Source: Eledone cirrhosa (lineage: Eukaryota). Taken from it: 64,000 nucleotides of DNA. Below, in pieces: positions 24,335 to 59,026 of the stretch. The notes below the pieces were generated by a model that made no database searches, was not told the origin of the DNA, and was given only the letters and a program-made list of their open reading frames with translations. The position numbers were made by a program, and so were the translations under genes. The stretch spans positions 39,556,001-39,620,000 of the forward strand of contig OZ024746.1 of assembly GCA_964016885.1 (NCBI GenBank), given 5' to 3'. How positions within the stretch are numbered: position 1 is the first letter of the stretch; each line of letters starts with the position of its first letter.

Positions 24335-24893
24335 TAGCGGGGGTGAGTTTTTTATTTGGGGGGGAGGTCCGTTTTTATTGGGGGTTCCGTTTTATATTGC
24401 GAGGTCCGTTTTTTATTTGAGGTGGGGGGCTCCGTTTTTTATTGGGGGGGGGGGGCCTTGGGGAGGTCCGTTTTTTATTGGGGGGGGGGGGTTATTTGGG
24501 GGGGGGCGTTTCTTATTTGGGAGGGGGCATATTTTATTAGGGGGTCCGTTTTTTTATTTGGGGGTCGTTTTTTATTGGGGAGGGTTCGTATTTTATTTGG
24601 GGTTCCGTTTTTTATTGGGAGGTCCATTTTTTTTATTTGGGGGGTCCGTCTTTTATTGGGGGGACCATTTTTGAGGGGGGGGGGGGGGGTTATTGGGGGT
24701 CCATTTTTTATTGGGGTGTCCGTTTTTTATTTGGGGAGGGTTCATTTTTTAATGGAGGAGTTCATTTTTTATTGAGCCCCCTCCAAATAAAAAGATGAAC
24801 TCCCCAACATAACAAAACGGCCCCGCCTAATAGAAAATGGATTCCCCCCAATAAAAAAGGACCCCCCCTATAAAAAAAACAGTCCCTCCCCAA
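24335..24893. repeat. G-rich ~20-bp minisatellite with strand switch
   Basis: Units like GGGGGGTCCGTTTTTTATT to ~24775, then reverse-complement units. Confidence 0.85.
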
Positions 24894-25365
24894 TAATATA
24901 TGAATATGTGTAATGTGTGAAATGACGATTAAAGAGGCACCAATATTTGTGAAATTGAGATTTATTAGGGCATAAAAAGCTTATGGTATAGAATTCAAAG
25001 TATATGCACTCACGCGTTTGCACATAAAGACACACTCACATATACACACACACACATACACGCATACACACATATACATATACATACAAGCACACATGCT
25101 CACACACACATAGATACATATATGTATGTATGTGTGTGTACTATGTGCCACCGTAAGCTCATATGTGAGTACATTTGACGTATCAAAAATAATAAATTTA
25201 CCCATTGAAAAACTTCTCATCAATAATCTTTGAGGACCTAAAAGCAAACACGCACAAAACTTTCACATACACATGCGACACGCGCACACACAATCCCACA
25301 TATACACGCATAGTCAAGCACACTTGCGTAACCGACAGAGTGCTAGTTATGTATATAGATAGATA

Positions 25366-25839
25366 TATTTCTTTATTAGCCACAAGGGCGCACAAGAAAA
25401 GGGGACAATACAAAGACATGCCGGGGATTTTACATACAGTCGTGTAAAAAATATAAAAACAAACAACAATCGAAATCCCCAATAGGGGGGAGGCTCCACA
25501 AATGGGTTGTTTAATACCCCGTCGATAGAACAACCCTCAACTCCAGGAGCGTGTTGTGCAAGTGCTCCTTTCTTCCTTTTGCTCTCTTCTTCAACCTACA
25601 GGCTTATAAACAGAGAAGGCCCAATCACTCGGGCCATTTTCGCTTCATTCACCCACCTTTCAGTAAATTTACTGGGATGCAGTGTCTCTCTCTCCACCCT
25701 GATTCTCCTTCTAAAGTGATACTTAAAGAAGGGAATCAATTGTTGTCCGGAGAGAAAGGCATCTGTTCTCAGTTCTCTCAACCTCGTCCACCATATAACT
25801 TCTTTCACCATAGCCACCTACTCTCTTTCGTTTTTGAAA
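25366..25839 (-). mobile_element. Tx1-like copy C, 5'-truncated (ORF2 end + 3'UTR)
   Basis: AMVKEVIWWTRL..GPSLFISL* homologous to A and B; ends GTGGCTAATAAAGAAATA(TATC)2. Confidence 0.9.
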
Positions 25840-26084
25840 GAGATAGATAGATATATTTCTTTATTAGCCACAGGGGCACAAAAGAAGGGGACAAATACAA
25901 AGGTATACAATAAAAACGTGTAAAATGTTATCACAAATGGAATTTAAAAAGTTAGTCGATTTTCCCCAATAGAGGGAGACAGTTTATATGGGTAACACAT
26001 ACCCCCGAAAAAAAATGTGCAACCCTCATCTCCAGGAGTACGAAGAGTTTGTACTCCTTTCCTCTCCTCCTCCTTTTCCTCAAC

Positions 26085-29000
26085 CTACAGGCTGATATAG
26101 AGAGAAGGCCCATTCACTCGGGCCATTCTCGCCACTTTCACCCACCTTTCATAAAACTTGCTGGGGTACAGCACCTCTCTCTCCATCCTGATTCTTCTTC
26201 CAAAGTGGTATTTGAAAAAAAGAATCAGTTGTTGGCCGGAGAGAAAGGTGTCTGACCTCAGCCCTTTCAACCTTGTCCACCATACAACCTCTTTCGCCAT
26301 AGCTATCACACAAAGGAAAACCGCCTCTCCTTCGTTTTTGAAGGAGGGTGGCGGTTTGATCATGACAATGGATTCGGTGGTCAACTGGATTGGTCCCACC
26401 CGCGACAATAGTCGTTCTACATAGCCCCACAGGTCAGTGACGCCAGGGCAGTGTATGAATGCGTGCGCGACGGTTTCTTCGTCTCGCACGCACCTCGGAC
26501 AGATCTTTTTTGCATGGTCCCTGCCCGGGCGCCCATGTCTGTAGAGCTTGTCTCGAACTGGTAGAGCTCCTCGGTAGCACTGCCAGGCCAGGGACTTTTG
26601 GAAGTTGTCCATCGGTCCCGGGCGGAAGGTCCTACCGAACAGACTGGCCAGTTCATCTTCCTCTACGCCTAGAGTTTCACCGAGCGCGTCGTCGCACTTG
26701 CTGCGGACCAACCCTCTATAGAATGACGAAGTGGAGTCTCCACTGATCGCCGGGTCCGCCTGCCAGAGGGCTGTGAGCGCCTGAGCACATTCGATGTGCC
26801 AGTCGCCCATTTTCCTCGGTCTTTGCTTGACCCAGGACTGCAGCTCGGTCAACGAGATGAGTCGTGGGAAGGCTCGCCTCACGAACGGGGCCCACACCGG
26901 TTGTCCGATGAGGAATACGTAGAGATGCCGCAGCCTGAGCACGTGTTTGCGCATCGTCAACCACGGCATCCCCAGCCCTCCGTTAGAAGGGTGTTGGCAG
27001 CAGATGGATCTTCTCACCAAAGGAGCCCGCCTCTTCCAAAGGAATCGGAAGAGCGCGCGCTCCATTTTGGCGAGCGTTTTGGCTGGACAAGGCACGACGG
27101 TCAAGCGGTAGTAGATGGCGGACGCTATAAAAGTGTTCGCCACCTCCGCTCGACCTTTCAAGGATAGTTTGCACTCGGCCCACTTCTGGGTGAGTGCAAA
27201 CACCTTGGCCGTCACTTCGTTCCAGTTCTTCTCCACCTGGAGGTCCGGACCAAACCAGACCCGAGCAGCTTTACCGGTCCAGAGGGATGCCCTGCAATAG
27301 CTCCAGCTTCCGCAGTAGTGGCTCGAGAGTCAGTACGTACAGAAAGGAGGAGAGAGGGCATCCCTGTCGAATGGATCGCGTAATATGGAACGGCTCCGAG
27401 AGGTAGCTGTTCACCTTGACCCTTGAGCAGATGTTGCTGTTGTGCATTGCAGCAATCCAGCCCCTAAACACGGGTCCGAAGCCTGCCGCCTCGAGCACCA
27501 CATCCAGGTAACGATGGTCAACCCTATCGAAAGCCTTAGACTGATCCAAGTTGATCAGGGCCCCACCGAAGCCGGGTTTACACCCTACCCTCTCTATGAT
27601 GTATCGCATGAGGTGGAGGTTGTCGTGTATGGACCTGGTCGGCATTGCGCATGTCTGCGCTTCTCCCACCAGGTTCTCGACGACAAGCGCCAGCCTCTTT
27701 GCCAACACCTTGGCCAAAATCTGTAACTCTGTGTTTAGCAGAGTTATGGGCCGGAAGTTGCCTATGTCATCCCCCTTATTCTCGTCCTTCCTGATTAGTG
27801 TGACCACGCCCCCGGTTACAGAACTGGGAATTCTCCCGTTCTGTTGCCAGTTGCAGTAGATCGCTTCCAGGAGACCGGAGAATAAGTCCGGCATTGCTAC
27901 GTAAAATTCGTAGGGTAGACCGTCGAGACCTGGAGATTTGCGTCTGCCGCATTGGCTCAGCGCGTCCCCTATCTCAGTGGCTGAAATCGGCTTTTCGCAG
28001 AACTTTGCCTCGCTGTCCGAGAGTCGCGGTAGGCCGTCGAGGTATGGACCGAAATCCATAGCCTCTCCCGGCGCGCCGCTCCCCCCCGAACAGCCGAGCA
28101 AAGTGCCGCTGAAAATCCGCACACATCTGCTTCGGCTCACGTATCACGCGTCCGTTTTGGTCCTTCAAAGACCGAATCGTGGACTTGTTGCCACTTTTTG
28201 CCTCCGTCACTCGGGCCCAGCTAACAGCTTTGGCTCCCTCGTTTCCCAGAGCACGTATTTTGCTTCTGACAACGCAGCCCTCGTGCTTTGCGTCGAAGAA
28301 CTGGTCCAAGGCCGTTCTCGTTGCAAGCACGCTGGCTACGTTGCCACTTCTAATTGCCTCTTCTACTTTATCTACCAGTTCCTTCTCGGTTCTATTTCTA
28401 TCTAACGCTAATTCTTTACTAAAAACTATCGAGTCTAATCTAACTGCCCTCTTGAGAGAGTACCACCATCTGTTGTTGACAATGGCCCCTGTCAAGTGCT
28501 GTTTAACTAAAGTGCTAATCCGTCTACTGTAGGCTTTGCTTGTCGGTAACGACAAGTTCAGCTTCCAGTAGCCGGGTCCTTGTCTATGGGTTCTATCAAG
28601 GTTGGCCATGCAGGTCACTAGTTTGTGATCTGAATAGGCAACCATGAACATTTGTGGACAGCTTAACATGTCCCTATCCTTATTTCTAACTAGAACCCTA
28701 TCTAGGTACGATCTAGATGTTCCGCTACGATTACTCCACGTTCACAGTGGCGCAGTCGGAAAATCTAGTCGATATCTATCGGCCAGGTCAAATCGGTCGA
28801 TTAACTGTTTGAGGCTGTTACACCCCCCTTTATCGGGACATGCTCCCACATAGTCCCAACGTGCATCTAGGATTCCATTCCAGTCCCCCACTAAAAGCAA
28901 GGAGCGGGACGTTCCCAGAAAAGCCTCTAGACGTTTGAAGAAGTCTGGCCGCGGTGTCCCGGATGGGGCATATGCGGCCACCAGCCTGAAGGCTCCACCT

Positions 29001-29305
29001 TCACTACCGTCAACGTCTAGGACCACCAGTCGACCCTCCGGGCCCAGATGTACCGTCTGTGTTACGAGGCCCAGGTGTTTCCGCAGCAAAACGGCAACTC
29101 CGCCCCCACCCCCCGGTTGACAGAGAGATGCGTAGATCTCAAAGTCATCGAAGATGGGGGCCAGCTGTCGCTCGCCGTGGATCCTGGACTCGCAAATGGC
29201 TACCACATCCATACTGTGCGACCTGAGGTCGTTTAAAAGTTTTCCCTGTTTCCAGGGCATCCCCAGGCCGCGTACGTTCACACATCCAACTCTTATATTC
29301 GCCAT
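26085..29305 (-). pseudogene. Copy B ORF2 (APE endonuclease-RT-CCHC), disrupted
   Basis: Trp>TGA at ~28742, frameshift near G-run ~28085, ~216-bp deletion at ~27275 removing YADD relative to copy A. Confidence 0.9.
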
Positions 29306-29338
29306 GTTGGTGCTGAAAAGTTAAAAGAGGAAAAGAGA

Positions 29339-31234
29339 TCACTCACCCTTCGCCTCTTGGGGACCAGGCCGCACGATTTCCATGGGGGTGTTGGAGGGGT
29401 TGTCTGGATGGGTGGTGGTTTCCGGCGGGGTGGGGACGCAGATGTTTGGTGGGGTGGGGTCTGGTGGGATGGGGGTGTCTGGGGTGGGGAGGCATTTGAG
29501 AAGGACGCGGTTGAGTGGTTTCACGCAGGAATTACCCACATCCTTCTCAAATGTTTCTTTTAGGGACCTATAAGTTTGTATAGGGACCCTAATCAGTTTT
29601 AGGTTCAGTTTTTTGCTATTTTTAATAGAGTGGGCGAAAGTTTTCCCTGCGGTGAAAACCGAAGGGTCGTTCGTGATGGTCTCCATTAGTCTTTTGTTTT
29701 CAGTGTTTATGTAAGTGTAAGTGTAATTTTCTTGTGTTGTGTTTGTTTTTGTCTGTAGTTCTTGTGTGTGCTTTCGTTTTGTTGTAGGTATTTTGTTTTC
29801 AGGAGGTGGGGGTTTTGTTTGTGATATTTTTGTTGTTTGTGTTGGTGGTTGTATGTTTGTGGTAGTGTTTGCTGGTTTTTTGCTTTTGTGATGTCTTTTC
29901 TTTCTTTTCGAGCGATGGGGTTCTCCCTCGTCTTCACTGGGTGATGGCGAGATAGCCTCATCTGTTGTATCGTCTGTGTGATTGGGGAGGGGTATGTCTT
30001 GGGGAGCTGTTGTGTCTGTATGTGATTTTGCAGTGGTTTTAGGTGGAGTGGGGTTGGGTGGGACTGTGTTTGTTGTGGTTATTTTTGTGTGTTGGTGTTG
30101 TTGTTGTTGTGGTGGTGTTGGTGGTTGCGTTGTTTTGATGGGTGTCGGCAGAAGAGCCTTTTTTTGGTTCATTAGTTTAGGACAGGAAGCCCTCAGGTGA
30201 CCCCTGCTAAAGCAATGGTAACATGAAGGCCGCCTACCCTCAACCGAAAGGTTTATGTAGGTGAGTCCGTCCAGGAGTACACGCTGTGGGATCATAGCTA
30301 TTCGCTCTGGGCTCATTTGCACCAGAACTTCAATGCTAGTCCCATTGAATACATCTCTGGGGGACTTTCCTACTGACAGTATTCTGTCTTCATCAAAATT
30401 GATGAAGCCGCACAGTATCCACCATATGTTCACCTTTGGTGTGACACTTGTGATTCTGATCTTTTGTGTCCTTTTTCCCATGTATGTAGGGAAAAGGGTG
30501 TACAGGTTGGATACAATTGGCGACACAGAGTAATTTTGGGCCGTCAATTGATCCTTCATGAGTACCGAAATACTCCCAAAAAGTTTGCTTCTTTGAATGA
30601 ATGCAATATCATTCATTGAATTTTTGAAAACCAGTCCAATTTCTTTCTGTGACAATTGGACTGGTTTTCGGGTAGAATTGGAAACTGTCCTAAAAACTAT
30701 CGTTTTGAGAGCAGTTTCCTTGCGAATTTCTACCGGAGAATTGATGCTGAAAGCACCATTTTTTTCGAAAGTGACATATCTCTTAGCGTCCTTTAAAAGT
30801 TGTTCAGCATTTGTTATGTCGAGATATATCAATTCTTCTTTCTTTTGAACTTTCTCTGCAAAGGAGATTTTTGGTTTCTTCGTGGAATCCGTATTGGTGG
30901 TGTTGTCATTATTGTTGTTATTCTTGTTGTTATTCTTGTTGTCACCGATGTTGGTATCATCCGTATTTTCCTTGGTGTTGTTGTTGGCGTTATCTTTATT
31001 TTTTTCTTTGTTGTTGTTATCATTGTTGCTTTTATCATCATTATTGGTTTTGCTGTTATTTTTGTTGTCATTGAACTGTTTGGTGTCATTTGTGTTGTTT
31101 GGATATGAATTCGTTTTTTTATTTTCATTTTGTCTTTCCATCTCTATAGTATCTAGTGAAGAAGACGTTGTTGACTGCGAGCTTTGTAGTCTTACCGCCT
31201 CTCCACCACCATTATCGTTGGACGCAGTGTTCAT
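29339..31234 (-). CDS. Copy B ORF1 (nucleic-acid-binding, gag-like zinc knuckle)
   Basis: CYHCFSRGHLRASC (CX2CX4HX4C), Asn-rich N-terminus, Pro/Thr/Gln-rich tail, KRKKR; first ATG at 31234. Confidence 0.88.
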   Translation of the reverse strand: MNTASNDNGGGEAVRLQSSQSTTSSSLDTIEMERQNENKKTNSYPNNTNDTKQFNDNKNNSKTNNDDKSNNDNNNKEKNKDNANNNTKENTDDTNIGDNKNNNKNNNNNDNTTNTDSTKKPKISFAEKVQKKEELIYLDITNAEQLLKDAKRYVTFEKNGAFSINSPVEIRKETALKTIVFRTVSNSTRKPVQLSQKEIGLVFKNSMNDIAFIQRSKLFGSISVLMKDQLTAQNYSVSPIVSNLYTLFPTYMGKRTQKIRITSVTPKVNIWWILCGFINFDEDRILSVGKSPRDVFNGTSIEVLVQMSPERIAMIPQRVLLDGLTYINLSVEGRRPSCYHCFSRGHLRASCPKLMNQKKALLPTPIKTTQPPTPPQQQQHQHTKITTTNTVPPNPTPPKTTAKSHTDTTAPQDIPLPNHTDDTTDEAISPSPSEDEGEPHRSKRKKRHHKSKKPANTTTNIQPPTQTTKISQTKPPPPENKIPTTKRKHTQELQTKTNTTQENYTYTYINTENKRLMETITNDPSVFTAGKTFAHSIKNSKKLNLKLIRVPIQTYRSLKETFEKDVGNSCVKPLNRVLLKCLPTPDTPIPPDPTPPNICVPTPPETTTHPDNPSNTPMEIVRPGPQEAKGE

Positions 31235-31452
31235 AACGTAATCAAAATTTTTACAATATTTTTCCAAGATTCGATGGAGAAAATGCTTTTAAATGGATAT
31301 TCCGCCCCTGTAGGGGGCGAAAATGAGTTGACCCACCACCTGAAGGTCCAGACGGGTGGTCAAGTTACACAATGATATAAAATTTAACTAAAAACTCACG
31401 TTTTTTTCTGACATAAATTAACGGAAACTTCTCCGCGAAGTGACACACGTCT

Positions 31453-31488
31453 GATAGAGAGATAGATAGATAGATAGATAGATAGATA
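31453..31488. repeat. (GATA)n spacer between copy A 3' end and copy B 5' end
   Basis: Direct reading. Confidence 0.95.
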
Positions 31489-31752
31489 AGTTTCTTTTAT
31501 TTGCCACTAGGGCATCAAAAGTGGGACAAGTACAAAGGGGGGAGTTTACACAAAAAGGCGTCCTCAATAAGGAGGAGGCAATAACAAAATATAAAAATAA
31601 AATAAGATATAACAAAAAATAAAATTTTTAACAAAATCCTCAATAGAGAGGAGGCGCCTTGGGGGGTCGCACACACCCCCGAAAAAAGTGTGCAACCCTT
31701 TTCCTCAGGAGCACAGAGAGGGGGTGCTCCCTCGTTCCTTCCTCTTTTCCAC

Positions 31753-34700
31753 CTACAGGCTTATGTAAAGAGAAGGCCCATTCACACGGGCCATTCTCGC
31801 CACTTTCACCCACCTTTCATAAAAACGACTGGGGTGCAGCACCTCTCTCTCCATCCTGATCCTTCTTCCGAAATGATATCGGAAGAAACGGACCAGTTGT
31901 TGGCCAGAGAGAAAGGCGCCCGACCTCAGTCCTTTCAGACGCGTCCACCATACAACCTCTTTCGCCATGGCTATTACGCACAGAAACACCGCCTCTGCTT
32001 CATCTTTGAAGGGGGGAGGCGGCTTGATCATTACAATAGACTCGGTGGTCAACCGGATCGGTCCCACCCTTGACAGCAGTTGTTCGACATAGCCCCACAG
32101 ATCGGCTACGCCCGAGCAGTGTACCAATGCGTGTGCAACGGTTTCCTCGTCGCACACGCATCTGGGACAGATCTTTTTGGCGGGGTCCCTACCCGGGCGC
32201 CCGTGTCTGTAGAGCCTTTCTCGAACGGGTAAAGCCCCTCGGTAGCACTGCCAGGCCAGGGACTTCTGGAAGTTGTCCATAGGTCCCGGGCTGAATGTCC
32301 TACCGAACAGGCTGGCCAGTTCGTCCTCCTCCATGTCTAGGGCTTCTCCGAGGGCGTCGTCGCACCTGCTGCGTACCAGCCCTCTATAGAATGTTGCGGT
32401 GGAGTCTCCACTGATAACCGGATCCGCCTGCCAGAGGGCGGTGAGCGCCTGGGCACACTCAGTGTGCCAGGCGCCCAGTTTTCTCGGTCTCTGCTTGACC
32501 CAGGATTGTAGTTCGGTGAGTGAGACGAGTCTGGGAAAGGTTCGTCTCACAAACGGGGCCCACACCGGTTGTCTGGTGAGGAATACGTAGAGGTGCCGTA
32601 GCCTTAATGCGTGTTTACGCATCATTAGCCACGGCATCCCCAGCCCTCCTTTCGAAGGGTGTTGACAGCAGATGGATCTCCTCACCATAGGAGCCCGCCC
32701 CTTCCAAAGGAATTGGAAGAGCGCGCGCTCCATCTTGGTGAGGGTTTCCCTTGGGCAGGGCACTACGGTCAGGCGGTAGTAGATGACGGACGCTATATAA
32801 GTGTTCGCCACCTCCGCCCGACCTTTCAGGGATAGTTTGCAACTGGCCCACTTCTGGGTCAGTGCAAACACCCTGTTCGTAACCTCCGCCCAGTTTTTCT
32901 CCACCTGGAGGTCCGGTCCGAACCAGACCCCGAGCAACTTCACCGGGCCCTCCGTCCAGCGTCCGACGACGCCATCGGAGGGCATCGGTCTGCCCCTCCA
33001 CGTGCCGAGTTGCAAACCGATCGACTTGTCCCGGTTCAGCTTAGCCCCTGTGAACTTTTCGTACTCCTCCAGTAAGGTGCCGACCGCCTCGATTTCGGAG
33101 GCCGTCGACACCATTACTGTCACATCATCGGCGTAGGCTGACACCGCTTTCCGCAATCCCGGTTCCAAAGGGATGCCCTGCAACAACTCCAACTTCCGCA
33201 GTAGTGGCTCGAGAGTCAACACATACAGAAGGGAGGAGAGAGGGCACCCTTGTCGGATGGACCGCGCGATTTTGAACGGCTCCGAGAGGTAGCCGTTCAC
33301 CTTGACCCTAGAGCAGATGCGGCTGCTGTGCATAGCAGTGATCCAGCCCCTGAAAACGGGTCCGAAGCCTGCCGCCGCTAGCACCGCATCCAGGTAACCA
33401 TGGTCGACCCTATCGAACGCCTTAGATTGATCCAAGTTGATCAGAGCCCCACCAAAGCCGGGTTCGTTCCCAACCCTCTCTATGATGTATCGCATGAGGT
33501 GGAGGTTGTCATGGATGGACCTGGACGGGATAGCGCATGTCTGCGCATCTCCCACCAGGTTGCCCACGACAAGCGCCAACCTCTTTGCTAGCACCTTGGC
33601 CAAAATCTGTAACTCTGTATTTAGCAGAGTTATGGGCCTGAAGTTACTTATTTCGTCCCCCTTGTTCTCGTCCTTCCTCACTAGCGTGACTACGCCCTTG
33701 GTCACAGTACAGGGAATTCTCCCGTTCTGTTGCCAGTTGCAGTAGACCGCCTCGAGGAGATCGGGGAACAAGTCCGGCATAGCTAGATATAATTCGTAAG
33801 GAAGACCATCGAGACCCGGGGATTTGCGTTTGCCGCATTGGCCCAGCACGTCCTCTATCTCAGCGGCCGAAATCGGCTCCTCGCAAGACTTCGCCTCCCT
33901 GTCCGAGAGGCGCGGCAGGCCGTCGAGGTATGGACCGAAGTCCACGTTTCCAACCGGCTCCCCGCCCCTCCCGAACAGTCGGGCAAAGTGCCTTTGAAAG
34001 GCCTCACACATCTGCTTAGGCTCAAGAATCGCCCGTCCATCCAGGTCTCGCAAAGACCGGATGGTGGATTTAGTTCCACTGTTGGCCTCTGTCACGCGGG
34101 CCCAGCTAACAGCTTTGGCCCCCTCGTTCCCTAGAGCACGTATTTTACTTCGGACAACGCAGCCTTCGTGCTTCGCGTCGAAAAACTGGCTCAAAGCCGT
34201 TCTCGACGCTAGCACTCTGGCCACGTCGCCGCTTCTAATTGCCTCTTCTACTCTATCTATTAGCTCCCTTTCCTTCCTATTCCTATCCGCAGCTAGAACC
34301 TTACTAAATTCAATCGAGACTACTCTAATCTCTCTCTTTAGAGATACCCACCACCTGCTGTTGACGATCGCTCCAGTCAACCGTTCCTTAACTAACGTAC
34401 TAATCCGATTCCTGTAGGCTCTACTTGCCGGCAAGGACAAGTTGAGCTTCCAGTAACCGGGGCCCTGTCTATGCGTTCTATCAAGGTTGACCATGCAGGT
34501 CACCAACTTGTGGTCTGAATAGCCAACCATGAGCATTTCTGGACAACTTAAAAAGTCCCTGTCCTTATTTCTAACTAAAAATCTATCTAGGTACGATCTA
34601 GATGATCCGCTGCGATTTGACCAAGACCAGGTTGGCACCGTCGGAAAATCTAGTCGAAATCTATCGGCCAGGTCAAATCGGCCGAGTAACCCCTTGAGGC

Positions 34701-35190
34701 TGTTGCACCCCTCTCTATCGGGACATGCCCCTGCATAGTCCCAACGTGCATCCAGGATACCATTCCAATCCCCCACTAAAAGCAGGGAACGGGACGTCCC
34801 TAGAAAAGACTCCAGACGCTGGAAAAAGTCGGGCCGCTCTGTCCCAAAAGGGGCATATGCGGCTATCAGCCTAAAGGCTCTACCTTCACCACTGCCAAGG
34901 TCCAGCACCACCAGTCGACCCCCTGGGTCCAAGTGAACTATCTGTGTTGCAAGGCCCATATGTTTTTGCAGCAGAACGACAACCCCACCCCCACCTCCGG
35001 GCTGACAGAGAGATGCGTGCATCTCAAAGTCGTCAAAGGTGGGGGCTAGCTGTCGCATGCTGCTGATCCGGGCCTCGCAGATAACCATCACATTTATAGA
35101 TTGTGACCTGAGGTCATTTAGAAGCATTGCTTGCTTCCAAGACGAGCCCAGGCCACGCGCATTTAGACACCCTACTCTTAGCACAGCCAT
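31753..35190 (-). CDS. Copy A ORF2: APE endonuclease, reverse transcriptase, C-terminal CCHC (1145 aa from ATG)
   Basis: CLNARGL, GDWN, YLDRFLV, SDHK; PGLDG, FRPITLLN, KAFDRV, QGCPLS, YADD; GGLG; CPRC..ETVAHALVHC. Confidence 0.95.
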   Translation of the reverse strand: MAVLRVGCLNARGLGSSWKQAMLLNDLRSQSINVMVICEARISSMRQLAPTFDDFEMHASLCQPGGGGGVVVLLQKHMGLATQIVHLDPGGRLVVLDLGSGEGRAFRLIAAYAPFGTERPDFFQRLESFLGTSRSLLLVGDWNGILDARWDYAGACPDREGCNSLKGLLGRFDLADRFRLDFPTVPTWSWSNRSGSSRSYLDRFLVRNKDRDFLSCPEMLMVGYSDHKLVTCMVNLDRTHRQGPGYWKLNLSLPASRAYRNRISTLVKERLTGAIVNSRWWVSLKREIRVVSIEFSKVLAADRNRKERELIDRVEEAIRSGDVARVLASRTALSQFFDAKHEGCVVRSKIRALGNEGAKAVSWARVTEANSGTKSTIRSLRDLDGRAILEPKQMCEAFQRHFARLFGRGGEPVGNVDFGPYLDGLPRLSDREAKSCEEPISAAEIEDVLGQCGKRKSPGLDGLPYELYLAMPDLFPDLLEAVYCNWQQNGRIPCTVTKGVVTLVRKDENKGDEISNFRPITLLNTELQILAKVLAKRLALVVGNLVGDAQTCAIPSRSIHDNLHLMRYIIERVGNEPGFGGALINLDQSKAFDRVDHGYLDAVLAAAGFGPVFRGWITAMHSSRICSRVKVNGYLSEPFKIARSIRQGCPLSSLLYVLTLEPLLRKLELLQGIPLEPGLRKAVSAYADDVTVMVSTASEIEAVGTLLEEYEKFTGAKLNRDKSIGLQLGTWRGRPMPSDGVVGRWTEGPVKLLGVWFGPDLQVEKNWAEVTNRVFALTQKWASCKLSLKGRAEVANTYIASVIYYRLTVVPCPRETLTKMERALFQFLWKGRAPMVRRSICCQHPSKGGLGMPWLMMRKHALRLRHLYVFLTRQPVWAPFVRRTFPRLVSLTELQSWVKQRPRKLGAWHTECAQALTALWQADPVISGDSTATFYRGLVRSRCDDALGEALDMEEDELASLFGRTFSPGPMDNFQKSLAWQCYRGALPVRERLYRHGRPGRDPAKKICPRCVCDEETVAHALVHCSGVADLWGYVEQLLSRVGPIRLTTESIVMIKPPPPFKDEAEAVFLCVIAMAKEVVWWTRLKGLRSGAFLSGQQLVRFFRYHFGRRIRMEREVLHPSRFYERWVKVARMARVNGPSLYISL

Positions 35191-35214
35191 GTTGGTGGTA
35201 AAGAGAAAAGGCAC

Positions 35215-36857
35215 TTACCTCTCTGCGTCCCGGGAAACGGGCCGCTCAATTTCCATGCTGGTTGGGGATGGGTTGTTGGGTGGGGTTGTGGTTTGTGGAA
35301 GTGAAGGGGCATCGGTGTGTTGTGGGGTTGGGGTGTTTGTCGTTGAGTGGGTGTCTGGGTGAGGTGGGGGGGTGAAATTTTTTAGGAGGACGCGGTTGAT
35401 TGGTTTGGCGCAGGGGGGGCCCACGTCCTCCGTGAAATTTATTTTCAGTGTTTTGTACAAGTGCATTGGGACTTTTATCATTTTCAAATGAGGTAGTCCC
35501 ACAGCAGTTATAAAGTTTGGCCCTTCGGTTTGGACCGAAGGGTTTGCTGAAATTGTTTTCCGTAATTCTTTGTTGTCTGTGTTCATGTATGTGTATTGTA
35601 ATGTCTTTTTTTGTGTAGCAGTTAGTGTTGTGTGACAGGGAGGGGTGGTTTGTGTGTAGTTTGTGTTCTCTTGGGGGGGATTAAAGTTAACATGTGTGTC
35701 TGTGGTGCGTCTCCTCTTCTTTCTTTTTACTTGTTGGAAGGGATCTTTTTCGTCTTGCGACGAAAGAGGTTCGTCTTCCTTGTTGGGTGGGAGGGGTATG
35801 TTTTCTGGTAGTGTTTGCGGTGTGCGTGTTTTTGTATTTGTTTTGGGTGGGGAGGGATTGGGTGGGACAGTATTCTGTGTTATTTTTTCACGTGTTTGTT
35901 GTTGTTGTTGTTGTGGTGGTGGTGGTGGGGTTGTTGGTTTTTGTTGTTGTTGTGGTTGTTTTTGTTGTTGTAGTTGGGGTGGTGTTGGTGTTGGTAGCAG
36001 TGTTTTTTTCTGTGTGAGCTGGGGACAGGCAGCCCTCAGGTGACCTCTATTGCCACAGAGGTAACAGGAGGGACGCCTACCCTCCACAATAATGTTGAGG
36101 TGGGTACGGTCATCCAGCATGACGCGCTCAGGGATTTGGGCGATGCGTTCTGGCCTTATTTGGGTCAGAACTTCGATGCTCGTTCCACTGAACGCGTCGC
36201 CGGATGCCTTCCCTATTGAGATGAGGTTGTCCTCGTCTAAATTGAGGAAACCGGTTAGTAACCACCAGTAGTTTATGTTTGGGGTGATGGTGGTTATCCA
36301 TATCCTCTGGGTTTTTTTACCCATGTAGGTAGGGAAGAAGGTGTAGTGTGTGGACCGAATTGGCGACACAGAGTATTTTTTTGCCGCCAATTCGTCTTTC
36401 ATCAATATGGATAAACTCCCATAGAGTTTATCCTTTTGTATGAAAGTGATGTCTCTCATCGCGTCTTTCAAGACTAACTGAGTTTCCGCTTGAGATGGTT
36501 GCGCTGGTTTCTTTGTTTTATTTAAAATTGTTCGGAATACGACAGTTCGTAATTCCGTCTGTCTTTTTAGCTCCGGAGGTGAATGTATAGAAAACGATCC
36601 GTTTTCGCCAAAAGACACATATTTCTTGGCTTTTTCCAGCATTTCTTTTGCTTTTGAAATATCTTCCAGCACATAAGCGACTGATAATTTAGCCGTTTGT
36701 GCAAAAGATATTTTGTTTTCGTTTTGGATATTAGTATTGTTTTGTTTCTCGTCGTTTGAGTTGTTTTCATCTTTGTTGTTGTTGTTGTCTTTCTCGTTTC
36801 GTGTGTGGATACTTGTGACGTTTGTGTTGTTGTTGTTTTTGTTGTCTTTATTGTTGC

Positions 36858-36888
<31 letters not shown>

Positions 36889-37065
36889 GTTTTCAAATTC
36901 TTGTGTAGTTGTGGTTACATCTAGTGGTCGGTCAACAGGTGAAGACAATTCTTCCTCTCTCTGACCTCTGCCTTTGGCATCTGCTGCTGTGACAGTGGCA
37001 GGGGGAAGCTGTGAGTATGACTTCCCCTTTCCTTCTTTGATTGATGGTGAAGATGATTCAGCCAT
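35215..37065 (-). CDS. Copy A ORF1 (zinc-knuckle protein)
   Basis: CYLCGNRGHLRAAC; core alignable with copy B ORF1; KRKKRRR; ATG at 37065. Confidence 0.9.
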
Positions 37066-37323
37066 TTTTCTCAAAATAGGGTTTTTCGAAGTTTTTCGAA
37101 AGATAAAATGTTCACAATACTATTTCGCCCAAAGGCGCAGAATATTTTGAGAGACCGACCAGATCAAAATTTGACCTGGCAGTCCCTCTACAAAATGATA
37201 CAAAAATGAAAGTTTACAGTTTACAATTTCCGTATGAATTTAAACAAAAACTTACCGAGCGAGCTCAGCACATGTGTCCATCAGATAGATATAGATAGAT
37301 AGATAGATAGATAGATATAACAT

Positions 37324-38400: not shown

Positions 38401-39334
38401 TGTTTCGCACTGTAAGAAAGAGAGGTTTATTGTGTTGTGGTGTTGTTGTTGTTGGTGGTGGTGGTGGGATTGCTGTGCTAATCATCCTTTTGTTTTGTTG
38501 CTGTTTTTATGTTTTTTTAAATGTTTATTTTTATGTTTTTTGATTGTTGTTATTGCTTTTATGTGTTTTCCTATTGTTTTTGTTCTTTTTTATTTTCGTT
38601 GTTGCTTTTTATGTTTTTATTGAGGTTGTATTTATATTTATGGTTATGATGGTTGAGGGTGTTGTTATTGTTGCTACTGCTGTTTTTGATGTTTTGGTTG
38701 CTGCTGCTGCTGCTGTTGCTGCTACATACGGTTATGATGGCCGTGACAGCAATTATATGGTTACTGGAGGTGGAGGTGTTATTTATTGAGAACACCAATC
38801 TTTGCTGCCATTTTTTTTTTATGCTATCGTGACTACCACCATCTTAAACATCACTAATGTTAGTGTTGCTGGTAACGATAATGATGGTGGTGATGGTGGT
38901 GGTGGTGGTGGTGGTGGTGGTGGAATTGCCTGTCGTAACGTCATTGTTTCTGCTACAGCCTGTTAGAATGAGAGAAGAGAAAATCGCATGATCCTCTCCC
39001 CTTTCTGTTGTTTTACTGAAAGCGAGTTACTGACTTTGTATCTTCACCTTCCTATTGCGGTTTGCTCTTCCTTTACTCTCTTTGTCGTTTGTATAAACAG
39101 CAGATGTCATATGAAAATAAATATACACGTAATTCTTCAAATGATCATTTTTTCCAAGATTGAAAATCGAAAGTGTGGCCCAAATAAGTGCCGAAATATT
39201 AGACAACCAACGAACTGCATTCTTGGTTAGATCTGTAACAAGACAGAGCATATTAAAGGGAATAAAGGGCAATATAATAATTTCACAGAGCGCTACCAAT
39301 TCATAACTCACCGTTCAGCTATAATAATTATTTT

Positions 39335-39430: not shown

Positions 39431-40079
39431 AATCAGTCGTAACATAAACGCTAACACTATTGATGTAGTGAGCAAAATATTGGCTATGGCCTAATCAGTA
39501 TATGATCAAACCTTCCATCATTAACATCTGTTTATCTTCCTGGTTGTGGTTTTTAATGCTATCGATAAAACATGATAGTAGATTATAGCAATGATTAAAT
39601 AAATATGAAATAATAGAATCGTTAAGAATAACTAAACAAATACAGTTGATTTAAAACAAAAATGGGGTTCTAAAGAAGTGAAGTGAAGGATTTTGCCCAA
39701 GGACAATATCACGACTTCAGTACAATATAAATGCTTGATTCACAAGTTTATAAACTCGATCATTTTACTTCTCAATAAGTGTTGCTTTTTGGTGCAAGTT
39801 AATGTTGTTTATCTTCAGGTCAGACCTGAATCAATAGACCTATAACCAAATATCTCGGAGTTGTCACCGATAGATTGTATCAGCAATGGAGAGTCCATTG
39901 GAAACATTGTTTCCTTGTTCCGATTTGACGAGTTCCACCCCACTCGGTAATCGAATGAATGAAGTCTGGTATTGTGTCGATCGAACACTATCTACATTAT
40001 TTAATGTGACCTGACTTATTTAAGAGGACAAGATTCAATTTGAGCGATGTTTGGTTGTTATTTATTAATAAAATGGTAG

Positions 40080-40465
40080 ATAATTGTTTCTACTTTAGGC
40101 ACAAGGCCAGCAATTACCCAGTGCATTACTGGTACTTTATTTTATCGACTCCGTAAGGATGAAAGGCAAAGTCAACCTCGGCGGGATTTGAACTCAGATC
40201 GTAAAGGGACGTAACTATGCTGGAAAGCATGGCGTCCGATCCTCTACTGATACTGCAAATCCACTGCTGGTAGATAATTGTTTCTAATTTAGGCACAAGG
40301 CCAGCAATCACCCAGTGCATTACTGGTACTTTATTTTATCGACCCCGTAAGGATGAAAGGCAAAGTTAACCTTGACGGGATTTGAACTCAGACTGTAAAG
40401 GGACGTAACTATGCTGGAAAGCATGGCGTCCGACTCTCTACCGATACTGCCAATCCCCCGCCCTA
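40080..40465 (-). mobile_element. Tandem pair of SINE family A
   Basis: Head-to-tail copies at 40080-40265 and 40273-40465. Confidence 0.85.
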
Positions 40466-52137: not shown

Positions 52138-52337
52138 TATATATTTTATAAAACTATTTGATGTTTGACTCCCTTACACGTATTCGTACGTCTATGCTTT
52201 TTCGGCCAACACACACTCACACACACACGCACACACACATACACACACACACACACATACACATACATATATATATATGTATGTGTAAATTTAGACATGT
52301 AATTTACTGTGTTTATTTATACATATATATTACTATA

Positions 52338-52850
52338 TAATTGTTTCTACTTTAGGCACAAGGCCAGCAAATACCCAGTGTATTACTGGTACTTTATTTT
52401 ATCGACCCCGTAAGGATGAAAGGCAAAGTTAACCTCGGTGGGATTTGAACTCAGTCCGTAAAGGGACGTAACTCTGCTGCAAAGCATGGCGTCCGACCCT
52501 CTACCGATACTGCCAATCCACCGCCCTCATATATATATTACTATATAATTGTTTCTACTTTTGGCACAAGGCCAGCAAATACCCAGTGCATTACTGGTAC
52601 TTTATTTTATCGACCCCTTAAGGATGAAAGGCAAAGTTAACCTCGGCGGGATTTGAACTCAGAATGGCAAGGGCCGTAACTCTATACATCAAAGCATGGC
52701 ATCCGACCCTCTACCGATACTGCCAATCCACTACTATATAATTGTTTCTACTTTTGGCACAAGGCCAGCAATTATATCAGTGTATTACTGGTACTTTATT
52801 TTATCGACCCCGTAAGGATGAAAGGCAAAGTTAACCTCGGCCTTTCATCC
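52338..52850 (-). mobile_element. Tandem trio of SINE family A
   Basis: Copies begin at 52338, 52547, 52740, each preceded by TACTATATAAT. Confidence 0.85.
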
Positions 52851-56286: not shown

Positions 56287-56831
56287 AGGCCAACAATTTG
56301 TAGGGAAGGGGAAAATCGATCCCAGTTCATTCCTAGTACTTTATTTTATCGACCTCGTAAGGATGAAAGCTAACCTCAGCAGGATTTGAACTCAGAACGT
56401 AAAGGGCCGTAACTCAATGCCGTAAAGCATGGCGTCCAACGTTCTACCAATACTTCCAATTGAACTCGGAACGTAAAGGGACGTAACTCAATGCCGTTAG
56501 CATGTTGTCTGACGTTCTACCGATACTGCCAATTGAACTCGTAACATAAAGGGCCGTAACTCAATGCCGTAAAGCCTGTTGCCTGATGTTCTACCGATAC
56601 TGCCAATTGAACTCAGAACGTAAAGGGCCGTAACTCAAGGCCATTAGCATGTTGTCTGATGTTCTATCGATACTGCCAATTGAATTCGGAACGTAAATAG
56701 CCGTAACTCAATGCCGTAAAGCATGTTGTCCGACGATCTATCGATACTGCCAATTGAACTCAGAACGTAAAGGACCGTAACTCTATACTGTAAAGCATGG
56801 CGTCTGACCCTCTACCGATACTGCCAATCCA
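56287..56831 (-). mobile_element. SINE family A with six tandem tRNA-like heads
   Basis: 73-74-bp units begin at 56386, 56460, 56533, 56607, 56680, 56754; single body/tail at 56287-56385. Confidence 0.85.
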
Positions 56832-57370
56832 CAATCATATAACTTTCTCCGCAGGAAGGACTGTTTGATCACCACATTCTACTTACGCATGCCTTACTAC
56901 AGGCTCTCTTTAGGATTACAATATTTGGATAGGAGATATACGTAATCGAGCCGCTCAAACTACTTTGAATTCAGAGACTCTCTCTCTTTGTTTTTGAGTA
57001 CATAATATATATATATATATATATAAATACAGAAACGGAGAAAGCTAATAGCGATACTCCGGCAAAATTCCAACTCACTCAACAAACATTAGGAAATATC
57101 TGAGTATATTCCTAATTAAACGTTCGGGGTGCTAACTATATTGTATTGTGTGGAGAAATGGCTGTATCATTTCATATGAGATATATTAAATATATCATAT
57201 ATATATATTTCGTTTCTGAATTTGTACTAGTAACTACAGACTTTCCTATTTCCTCTCCCTGATCATACGCCCCATCATTGAAATGTCTCCAGATGTATGT
57301 GACAGCACGGAGGACCTCCTCAGCAGAATCGGCGAGAGTAACCGATCTAGGGACCTAACAAACTGGTAGT

Positions 57371-59026
57371 ATGGATGTTGTGTCCCTGTATCCATCTATT
57401 GACGTGGATTTTGCTGTGGAGAAATGCGTAGAAATGATCAGTGAGAGCAATGTTGAATTCCGTGGGATTGATACCAGTGAGCTGGGACTCCTACTTAAAC
57501 TTACCTATAGTAATAATTATCTAGATACATATTACCTTAGCAACCTGTGCCCTACAATACCAGCAAGAGGCAGATCACCTACCATTACCTCAATGGCCAA
57601 GAAAACCCACACAGATATATGGAACGGGTGGACCAGAGCCATACGGACCCCAGAAAACCACGATGAACTAAAGAAAATGATTGCACATGCGGTGGGGGCC
57701 AGCATAAAATTAACCCTTAAGGAACATATGTTCAAATTTAATGGAAAAACATATGACCAAGAGGAGGGAGCAGCCATTGGTGTTAGCATTGCAGGCGACA
57801 TAGCTAACCTATTCATGGTATGGTGGGACAGTAGACTTAAACTTAAACTTAAAGAACAATTAGAAGACCCCTTAACCCTGATAATGTACTCCCGCTACGT
57901 TGATGGTATAAACATCGTAGTAAAAACACCCCCACTAGAGAACAGTCAGGAATTAGAGAAAAACACAATGGAAAGCATCCAGCAAATAGCTAACTCCATC
58001 CACCAGAGTATTAGAGTTACTATAGACTACCCAAGCAAACACCCCAACCATCGATTACCTGTACTAGACACAGAGCTCTGGTTAGATACCATTAATAACA
58101 AAAAATAAATCCTCCATTCCCATTATGCCAAACCCATGACTTCCAAATATCTGATCCACCGAAACTCAGCTGTTTCGAACCATACCAAAATCAACATACT
58201 GATTGCGGATTTGGTACGAGTGATGAGAAACGTGTCCCGCATGTGCAACCCCAAAGAACTAGAGAGACACATACAACAGTTCATCCACCGTATGCAGTTC
58301 TCTGGTTACAATCAGAGAGATAAAATCAGAGTGTATAGAGGAGCCAGAACCAAATGGGAAAAAATGGTAAATAATGACACAAATGGGACCTGCCCCTTGT
58401 ATAGGAGCAAATTTTGGAATAGAATAGAAAGAACTAGGAATAAGGCTAATAGAATAAACTCATGGTATGATAGCAATAAATACCAGAGTGTAATGTTCAT
58501 CGATACAACCCCTAGAGGTGAATTAGCTTACACATTTAGAAGGGCCCTAGATAAACATAAACTCAATATTAAGATAGTAGAAAGACCAGGTACCTCTATA
58601 AAAATACTTATTAGCAAGACATACCCTTTTCAAAGACCTCCCTGTATAGATAAGAAATGTATAATCTGTAAATTAAGCCCCCCTATTAACTGTAAAACTA
58701 GAAATGTAGTATATAGCATAAGATGTACTGAAGGACAGTGTAGAGATAAAAATATAGTGTACATAGGTGAGACAGCTCGTAGTATAGGGGAACGGATAAA
58801 TGAACACTGGCGAGACCTTCAAGATAGTAAAGAATCATCTATACTCTACCAACATGCTAAAATAGAACATAAGGGTAAATTAGAGAACATAGAAATAAAA
58901 ATAGAATCTACACACAGAAAAGACGCAATGTTTAGACAAATCACAGAGGCAATAAACATAAATGAACTCCAACCAAAATTAAATAGAAAACATGAGTGGA
59001 ACAGCAACATCACAACTTACAATTAA
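57371..59026 (+). pseudogene. PLE RT-GIY-YIG ORF with one in-frame TAA (58106-58108)
   Basis: MDVVSLYP, GAAIG, RYVDGI (YxDD mutated), LPVLD; CIDKKCIIC; NVVYSIRC..YIGETAR..RINEH. Confidence 0.88.

Follow-up and report, generated by a model that had tools for sequence, protein, structure and literature searches.

Three copies of a long interspersed nuclear element (LINE), designated A, B and C, lie in tandem on the minus strand of a 64,000-nucleotide stretch of the Eledone cirrhosa genome (contig OZ024746.1, positions 39,556,001 to 39,620,000 of the forward strand), which in its entirety is called the window below and supplies the coordinates used. In the clade to which these elements belong, the first open reading frame (ORF1) ends in a 5' splice-site consensus (donor) which is conserved in position, and there are two chimeric subfamilies which break exactly at this donor and resume after a CAG. 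We consider it likely, though unproven, with a probability of about 0.5, that the whole of ORF2 can be spliced out from stop codon to stop codon, giving an ORF1-only mRNA beside the full-length RNA. The wider proposal, in which the endonuclease-reverse transcriptase (RT) gene is an alternatively retained intron setting the ORF1p:ORF2p ratio, and in which the same donor also splices ORF1 onto the ORF2 of a neighbour in tandem arrays and so founds subfamilies (a spliceosomal exon shuffling between retrotransposons), is put forward tentatively, at a little short of even odds. Feature coordinates are collected in Table 1; the subfamily and family labels (A, A', B, B', Bq, B'', Bt, E, Z, K, D, D2, D', G, F) are our own and derive from the fetched elements.

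Element A ends its ORF1 in AG/GTAAGT, with the TAA stop at donor positions +2 to +4, while B has G/GTGAGT at 29346 with a TGA at +6 to +8. An earlier note on this DNA had placed the two donors at 35218 and 29346, and both coordinates were verified on the minus strand. Element B, one of the two full copies of the note, is not intact, as it carries a frameshift and a deletion near 27275 besides an in-frame stop at 28742. The end of the A ORF1 plus GTA is found in 267 exact genome copies, and within element A, which is intact, the donor is the only sense GGTRAGT (R being A or G). A G/GTRAGT donor is located at the ORF1 stop in 11/11 subfamily representatives (A, B, G, B'', Bq, B', D, D', A', X1a and D2, together ~62 kb per strand) and also in family F, and is the sole sense GGTRAGT in seven of the 11; away from the ORF1 end, these representatives contain four sense and seven antisense occurrences (background ~1 per 11 kb, or by our own arithmetic a chance of roughly 0.002 for a 20-nt window). 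When the ORF2 start was used as the anchor of a search, 2127 non-A copies were obtained, and among the first 100 of these the GTRAGT in the spacer was exact in ~85 as counted by eye, with 14 single-copy changes and one truncated copy.

This conservation extends over intact ORF2 proteins with identities to A from 85% (B) down to 64-66% (D, F), and over three unrelated ORF1 ends (A/B, D/G and F), all of which finish in the donor; in family F (66% amino acid identity) the donor is perfect despite the unrelated ORF1 end. The earlier note had claimed that the donor outlasts the divergence of the ORF1 C-termini and had proposed looking for it across the clade, and on both counts it is borne out. The donor is kept across two codon phases, as the ORF1 stop is found at +2 to +4 in A, A', B', B'', E and F and at +6 to +8 in B, D and G (donor phases and stops in the untranslated region (UTR) were read by eye or from single translations), and this shift of the stop means that nucleotides and not residues are conserved. 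The sole regular variation is A or G at +3, which would fit selection on U1 pairing rather than on protein. The donor is absent from the ORF1 stop in 7/7 distant L1/Tx1-like elements with a visible ORF1 stop (~25-30% identity), and hence is a trait of the clade. The donor is real and, taken by itself, likely functional. A further search with the B donor gave 593 matches, 100 of them listed, and was used as a count only. Relatives at ~41% identity also exist (P0002 group, seen without their DNA context), and a scan of viral contigs gave no relative. In subfamily K (one copy, L259, G000:C5 near 107087400) the ORF1 tail is ~11 nt shorter, and a donor-like CAG/GTAGGT is found at the new end.

We also searched for ORF1 ends followed by anything except the donor, and besides point variants these searches contained two recurrent joins, X1 and X2. 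In X1a, the ORF1 of lineage Z stops at the base where its parents begin GTGAGT (donor-bearing lineage Z parents were found at 5/30 loci), and continues with the last 23 nt of the A' ORF1, which in A' follow a CAG. X2 has a B'-like ORF1 which leaves at the same donor position and resumes 76 nt upstream in the X1a tail, after a C-rich tract and CAG. In X2, ORF1 shares 89% identity with the B' copy L067 and 67-71% with A/A', and ORF2 is closer to A' (92-94%) than to B' (79-80%). A third form, X1b (L089, L204), combines a B' ORF1 and the X1 join, and is probably a collapsed derivative of X2. The joins make up 21/42 rows of one B-group search (18 X1-type, two of which are inside X2 copies, and three X2), and another B-group search listed four X2 joins. 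Because the join searches had been anchored on the donor, two non-donor AGs located 23 and 10 nt upstream were used as control anchors, and these gave such joins in 0/7 and 0/12 matches, respectively. As in the spliced LINE-1 copies known as SpIREs, the X1 and X2 junctions are at a parental donor and after a parental AG, and tandem arrays are common (this window, and an array with a ~5.8-kb period on C1). It is likely that X1 and X2 are retrotransposed products of the spliceosome, in which case the donor is likely used; the earlier note had not foreseen this evidence.

With regard to the acceptor, the earlier note described the ORF2 stop as acceptor-like in all three copies. The ORF2 TAG indeed ends at 31753 (A), 26085 (B) and 25596 (C), preceded by a pyrimidine-rich stretch and followed by GT and then purine-rich sequence, and the note's own caveats, that the site overlaps coding sequence and has another AG 7 nt upstream, were both confirmed; the site is also weaker than the donor. 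When downstream YAG sites (Y being a pyrimidine) are ranked by pyrimidine fraction, a crude score, the ORF2-stop TAG is first in B'' (1/99), Bq (1/115) and B' (1/118), second in A' (2/103), third in G (3/115), X1a (3/108) and D2 (3/131), fifth in D' (5/119) and ninth in D (9/125), which with A and B (Table 1) makes rank 1-3 of 99-131 YAG sites in 9/11 representatives. TAG/G is common to both main branches. Compared with a U2-type intron, the 5' splice-site consensus is present and the tract plus YAG ranks high in these 9/11, with TAA in family F. Whether the AG of the ORF2 stop would be the everyday splice partner of the donor is about an even bet.

A stop-to-stop splice would deprive ORF1 of its own stop, and a phase-matched UTR stop follows within three codons in 7/13 subfamilies (A', B, B'', D, D2, D' and G, read by eye). 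Lineage Z has a B'-type UTR start, apparently without a nearby phase-matched stop. The spliced frame is open in the UTR for 78 codons in A (window 31751-31518, minus strand) and for 71 codons in F (L331:6131-6343), and both extensions begin with W-K and have a hydrophobic end; spliced ORF1p could in these two families gain a membrane-anchor-like tail, although this may be chance. The 3' UTR starts of D, D2, A' and B'' (L083, L097, L202 and L080) have donor-like bases after the ORF2 stop, and in D, 8/10 of these are the same as those following the ORF1 donor, an arrangement reminiscent of recursive splice sites. The start of the A 3' UTR folds no better than shuffled sequences (z -1.16).

HAL1 (half-L1) is an ORF1-only form of L1 which exists as genomic elements, and the earlier note had suggested looking for retrocopies lacking exactly ORF2. 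Here the outcome differs from HAL1: no genomic copy without ORF2 was found in A, the B group and D/G, the families covered (E, F, Bt and K lay outside the search), using wildcard-ended searches which require an exact exon end of 15-17 nt and miss about a quarter of sites. A probe from the window-specific B variant had three matches, all unrelated. Among the 15 of 354 joints listed for contigs of four runs (none of the six listed is on record as RNA) over 25340-37290, none was at either donor, which is uninformative either way. L1 proteins act preferentially in cis, on the RNA which encodes them (PMC5860796), so that an RNA lacking ORF2 may go uncopied, and only products retaining ORF2, such as X1 and X2, would be copied; the absence of ORF2-less copies therefore lowers the probability of the whole-ORF2 intron without refuting it. 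Two other candidates were rejected. The single D-type copy L086 (G000:C4:295172784), in which the ORF1 end is joined to ORF2 codon 6 with loss of the spacer and first codons, is read as a deletion and not as a splice product, since the removed part has no terminal AG and GTA microhomology is present. A mini-intron in the spacer fusing ORF1 to ORF2 was rejected as a general function, as the tract plus CAG which ends B-type spacers lacks its AG in A, D, E, F and G, the spacer is just ~28-46 nt and no spacer-less copy was among the B-group matches.

In the reading that we prefer, the spliceosome would use the donor at the ORF1 stop, paired most likely with the suboptimal acceptor at the ORF2 stop, and ORF2 would be removed as a retained-or-spliced intron, leaving an ORF1-only mRNA while the full-length RNA persists alongside. 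Splicing from a strong donor to a suboptimal acceptor would be partial, with the unspliced RNA acting as template and ORF2 message and the spliced RNA being translated into ORF1p, the purpose presumably being an excess of ORF1p. In bicistronic LINEs, excess of ORF1p over ORF2p is usually ascribed to inefficient ORF2 translation. The spliced RNA would leave no genomic copies since ORF2p acts in cis, while X1 and X2 would stem from splicing of one element into its neighbour, by tandem read-through or trans-splicing, and subsequent retrotransposition by the ORF2 kept in the product; subfamilies could in this way exchange ORF1 through splicing.

Several observations weigh against this whole-ORF2 intron. 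The fossil joins X1 and X2 represent two independent events only, both have a 2-nt AG microhomology at which a template switch could have occurred, and in neither was the ORF2-stop acceptor used. Because of the common ancestry of the subfamilies, their acceptor ranks do not count as independent, and the site itself varies: the pyrimidine tract is weaker in D, the L078-type end is TAG/A, and in family F the ORF2 stop is TAA with a poor tract and AG/GT 7 nt later, which speaks against a strict stop-to-stop rule. The reading frame of a spliced ORF1 would extend by 78 (A), 32 (B'), 43 (Bq), 27 (E) or 71 (F) codons. To these is added the lack of ORF2-less copies, of which there were 0 vs 267 donor-bearing copies in A (where the variant matches, 9, 9 and 2, were all point changes or 1-nt indels), none in 21, 19 and 42 matches in the B group, and none in 17 and 15 matches in D/G. 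The proposal of the earlier note that ORF2 is spliced as an intron is partly supported: it gains from the conservation in the clade and the fossil joins at the donor, and loses from the missing ORF2-less retrocopies and the TAA of family F. The tissue-specific switch which the note gave as an alternative gains no support.

Some of these points would be accommodated if the donor were a selected site for the U1 small nuclear ribonucleoprotein (snRNP) acting mostly without splicing, by shielding the full-length RNA from early 3' end formation or by affecting export or silencing, with the chimeras as occasional accidents of splicing. The donor is kept more strictly than the acceptor, as family F illustrates, ORF2-less copies were not found in the families searched, and U1 is described as having such a role at the donor of the copia element EVD (PMC5580714). 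We nevertheless consider this somewhat unlikely, as it accounts neither for the ORF2 stop being, in most subfamilies, the best acceptor-like site downstream nor for the phase-matched UTR stops, and as no AATAAA was noticed by eye in the A ORF2. The donor might also be regularly spliced to another acceptor, inside ORF2, just past its stop or further downstream in host or neighbouring sequence, with ORF2 again removed or disabled: neither fossil join has its acceptor at the ORF2 stop, several internal YAG sites equal the stop in score, and the donor-like bases after the stop in D, D2, A' and B'' could permit re-splicing. As no internal site outranks the stop across subfamilies, and the product with the spacer removed, which keeps ORF2 and would be copied in cis, is not among the B-group matches, we judge this improbable. 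Least probable is a role of the motif in translation (in ending ORF1 and re-initiating at ORF2) or an inherited coincidence, with the chimeras made by RT template switching at AG microhomology, since the location of the motif on the stop beside a pyrimidine spacer and Kozak-like start, the homology of the 23-nt tails joined in X1 and the AG on either side of both joins are outweighed by a variation which corresponds precisely to the GTAAGT/GTGAGT of U1 sites even as the stop changes position, and by both joins being at the donor and none at the control AGs.

The clade is placed in the L1 group on its sequence features: ORF2 has an N-terminal APE endonuclease and RT (in A, PF03372 at 33-227 and PF00078 at 512-755), there is a separate ORF1 and a 3' poly(A) signal or simple-repeat tail, and 5' truncation is frequent. 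The best match of the A ORF2 in the PDB is human L1 ORF2p (E 5e-48), with R2 at 6e-19. Placement in Tx1 is likely, and no named Tx1 reference was among the relatives listed. The A ORF1 had no match in a Pfam search, and its Atlas look-alikes (with zf-CCHC, and RRM_1 and ZCCHC3 RBD sets at 0.89-0.92) are a lead only. The A family is very young, with at least 150 genome matches at 98-100% amino acid identity to the first 100 ORF2 residues among the matches listed, and many of these 150 have a full open frame; two of 30 family A copies (L004 and L005) are 5'-truncated within ~10 nt of the ORF2 ATG. Element C has lost its 5' part and is a 3' fragment with 91% similarity to subfamily E. (TATC)n is found beside many 5' truncation points and 3' ends, for which there is no control count for comparison; 3' ends are at (TATC)n in the A, B and E groups vs (ATT)n in D and F, which suggests different microsatellite targets inside one clade. 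Family G forms a head-to-tail array of about ten elements with a period of ~5.84 kb (G000:C1:423.36-423.42 Mb).

Elsewhere in the window, 57359-59026 (plus strand) contains two ORFs without a Pfam match at E 0.01, but with RT-like and GIY-YIG-like motifs, which we take to suggest a Penelope-like element. A strong acceptor-like site near 38960 followed by low-complexity repeats (38985-38400, minus strand) may mark a host exon oriented like the LINEs, and a LINE-like 3' tail remnant is found near 39390-39330. There is also a G-rich tandem array of 19-20 nt units in two opposite orientations (24339-24878), and a SINE-like dispersed repeat of ~120-200 nt (40074-40456, 52321-52841, 56386-56828 and scattered copies; tandem units of 194, 208 and 74 nt).

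Table 1. Features of the tandem LINE copies in the window
Feature	Position	Strand	Basis or remark
Element A, full-length L1/Tx1-type LINE of a very young family, between (TATC)n runs	31489..37282 (ends approximate)	-	ORFs, domains, repeats
A ORF1, 616 aa: RNA-binding-like core, one CCHC knuckle, low-complexity tail	35215..37065	-	translation
A 5' splice-site consensus AG/GTAAGT containing the ORF1 stop	35213..35221	-	intron base 1 = 35218; phase 2
A inter-ORF spacer, pyrimidine-rich, without AG, Kozak-like context at its end	35191..35212	-	
A ORF2, 1145 aa: APE endonuclease, RT, zf-RVT-like end	31753..35190	-	translation, Pfam, PDB match
A putative intron	35218-31753	-	
A candidate acceptor: pyrimidine tract and ORF2 stop TAG/G	31752..31780	-	rank 2/115 of downstream YAG, score tied with top
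A 3' UTR with AATAAA; 78 open codons in the frame expected from a stop-to-stop splice	31489..31752	-	
Element B, decayed subfamily B copy, in tandem after A	25841..31452 (ends approximate)	-	
B donor G/GTGAGT	29341..29349	-	intron base 1 = 29346; phase 1
B candidate acceptor at ORF2 stop	26084..26112	-	rank 1/107 in intact B copy L082
Element C, 5'-truncated 3' end of subfamily E	25357..25830 (ends approximate)	-	ORF2 stop at 25596

When compared with known systems, the proposal resembles the shGAG mRNA of the Arabidopsis Ty1/Copia element EVD, in which a U1-type donor is conserved close to where the structural gene ends, a spliced RNA is dedicated to the structural protein and donor quality outweighs that of the acceptor (PMC5580714). 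EVD differs in being a long terminal repeat (LTR) element with one polyprotein ORF and a short intron around the protease, coupled to premature polyadenylation (PMC5580714), whereas the elements described here are non-LTR and have two ORFs, with a proposed intron that spans the whole of ORF2 and no change of the normal 3' end; as there is no LTR gag-pol polyprotein, the likeness is a functional analogy only. Splicing is regarded as harmful to L1, and human L1 SpIREs are likewise retrotransposed spliced LINE RNAs with junctions at a donor and acceptor, but with donors in the 5' UTR and products called dead ends (PMC5860796). In the present elements it is the ORF1 stop that bears the donor, and the joins, which link two subfamilies, were copied further (at least 18 X1-type and at least four X2-type). 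In the mRNA/LINE-1 chimeras attributed to trans-splicing, the 5' part also ends precisely at a donor and joins a LINE acceptor, that part being a host exon (bioRxiv 10.1101/2025.02.02.635956) and here the ORF1 of another LINE. The Tx1 elements Kibi and Koshi share the L1-group architecture, microsatellite-flanked copies and tandem insertion, and the accessible part of their description mentions no splice signals (PMC4494074); the repeats here are (TATC)n and (ATT)n. No earlier report of a donor at the ORF1 stop or of a whole-ORF2 intron in a LINE was found, in a literature coverage that excluded most subscription papers and Repbase notes.

LINEs often replace their 5' ends and ORF1 by means which are unclear, and the two donor-to-CAG chimeras, with their parents identified, would provide a concrete mechanism for such ORF1 replacement. 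If the proposal is true, the conserved donor at the ORF1 stop would represent a retrovirus- or copia-like splicing strategy in a non-LTR element.

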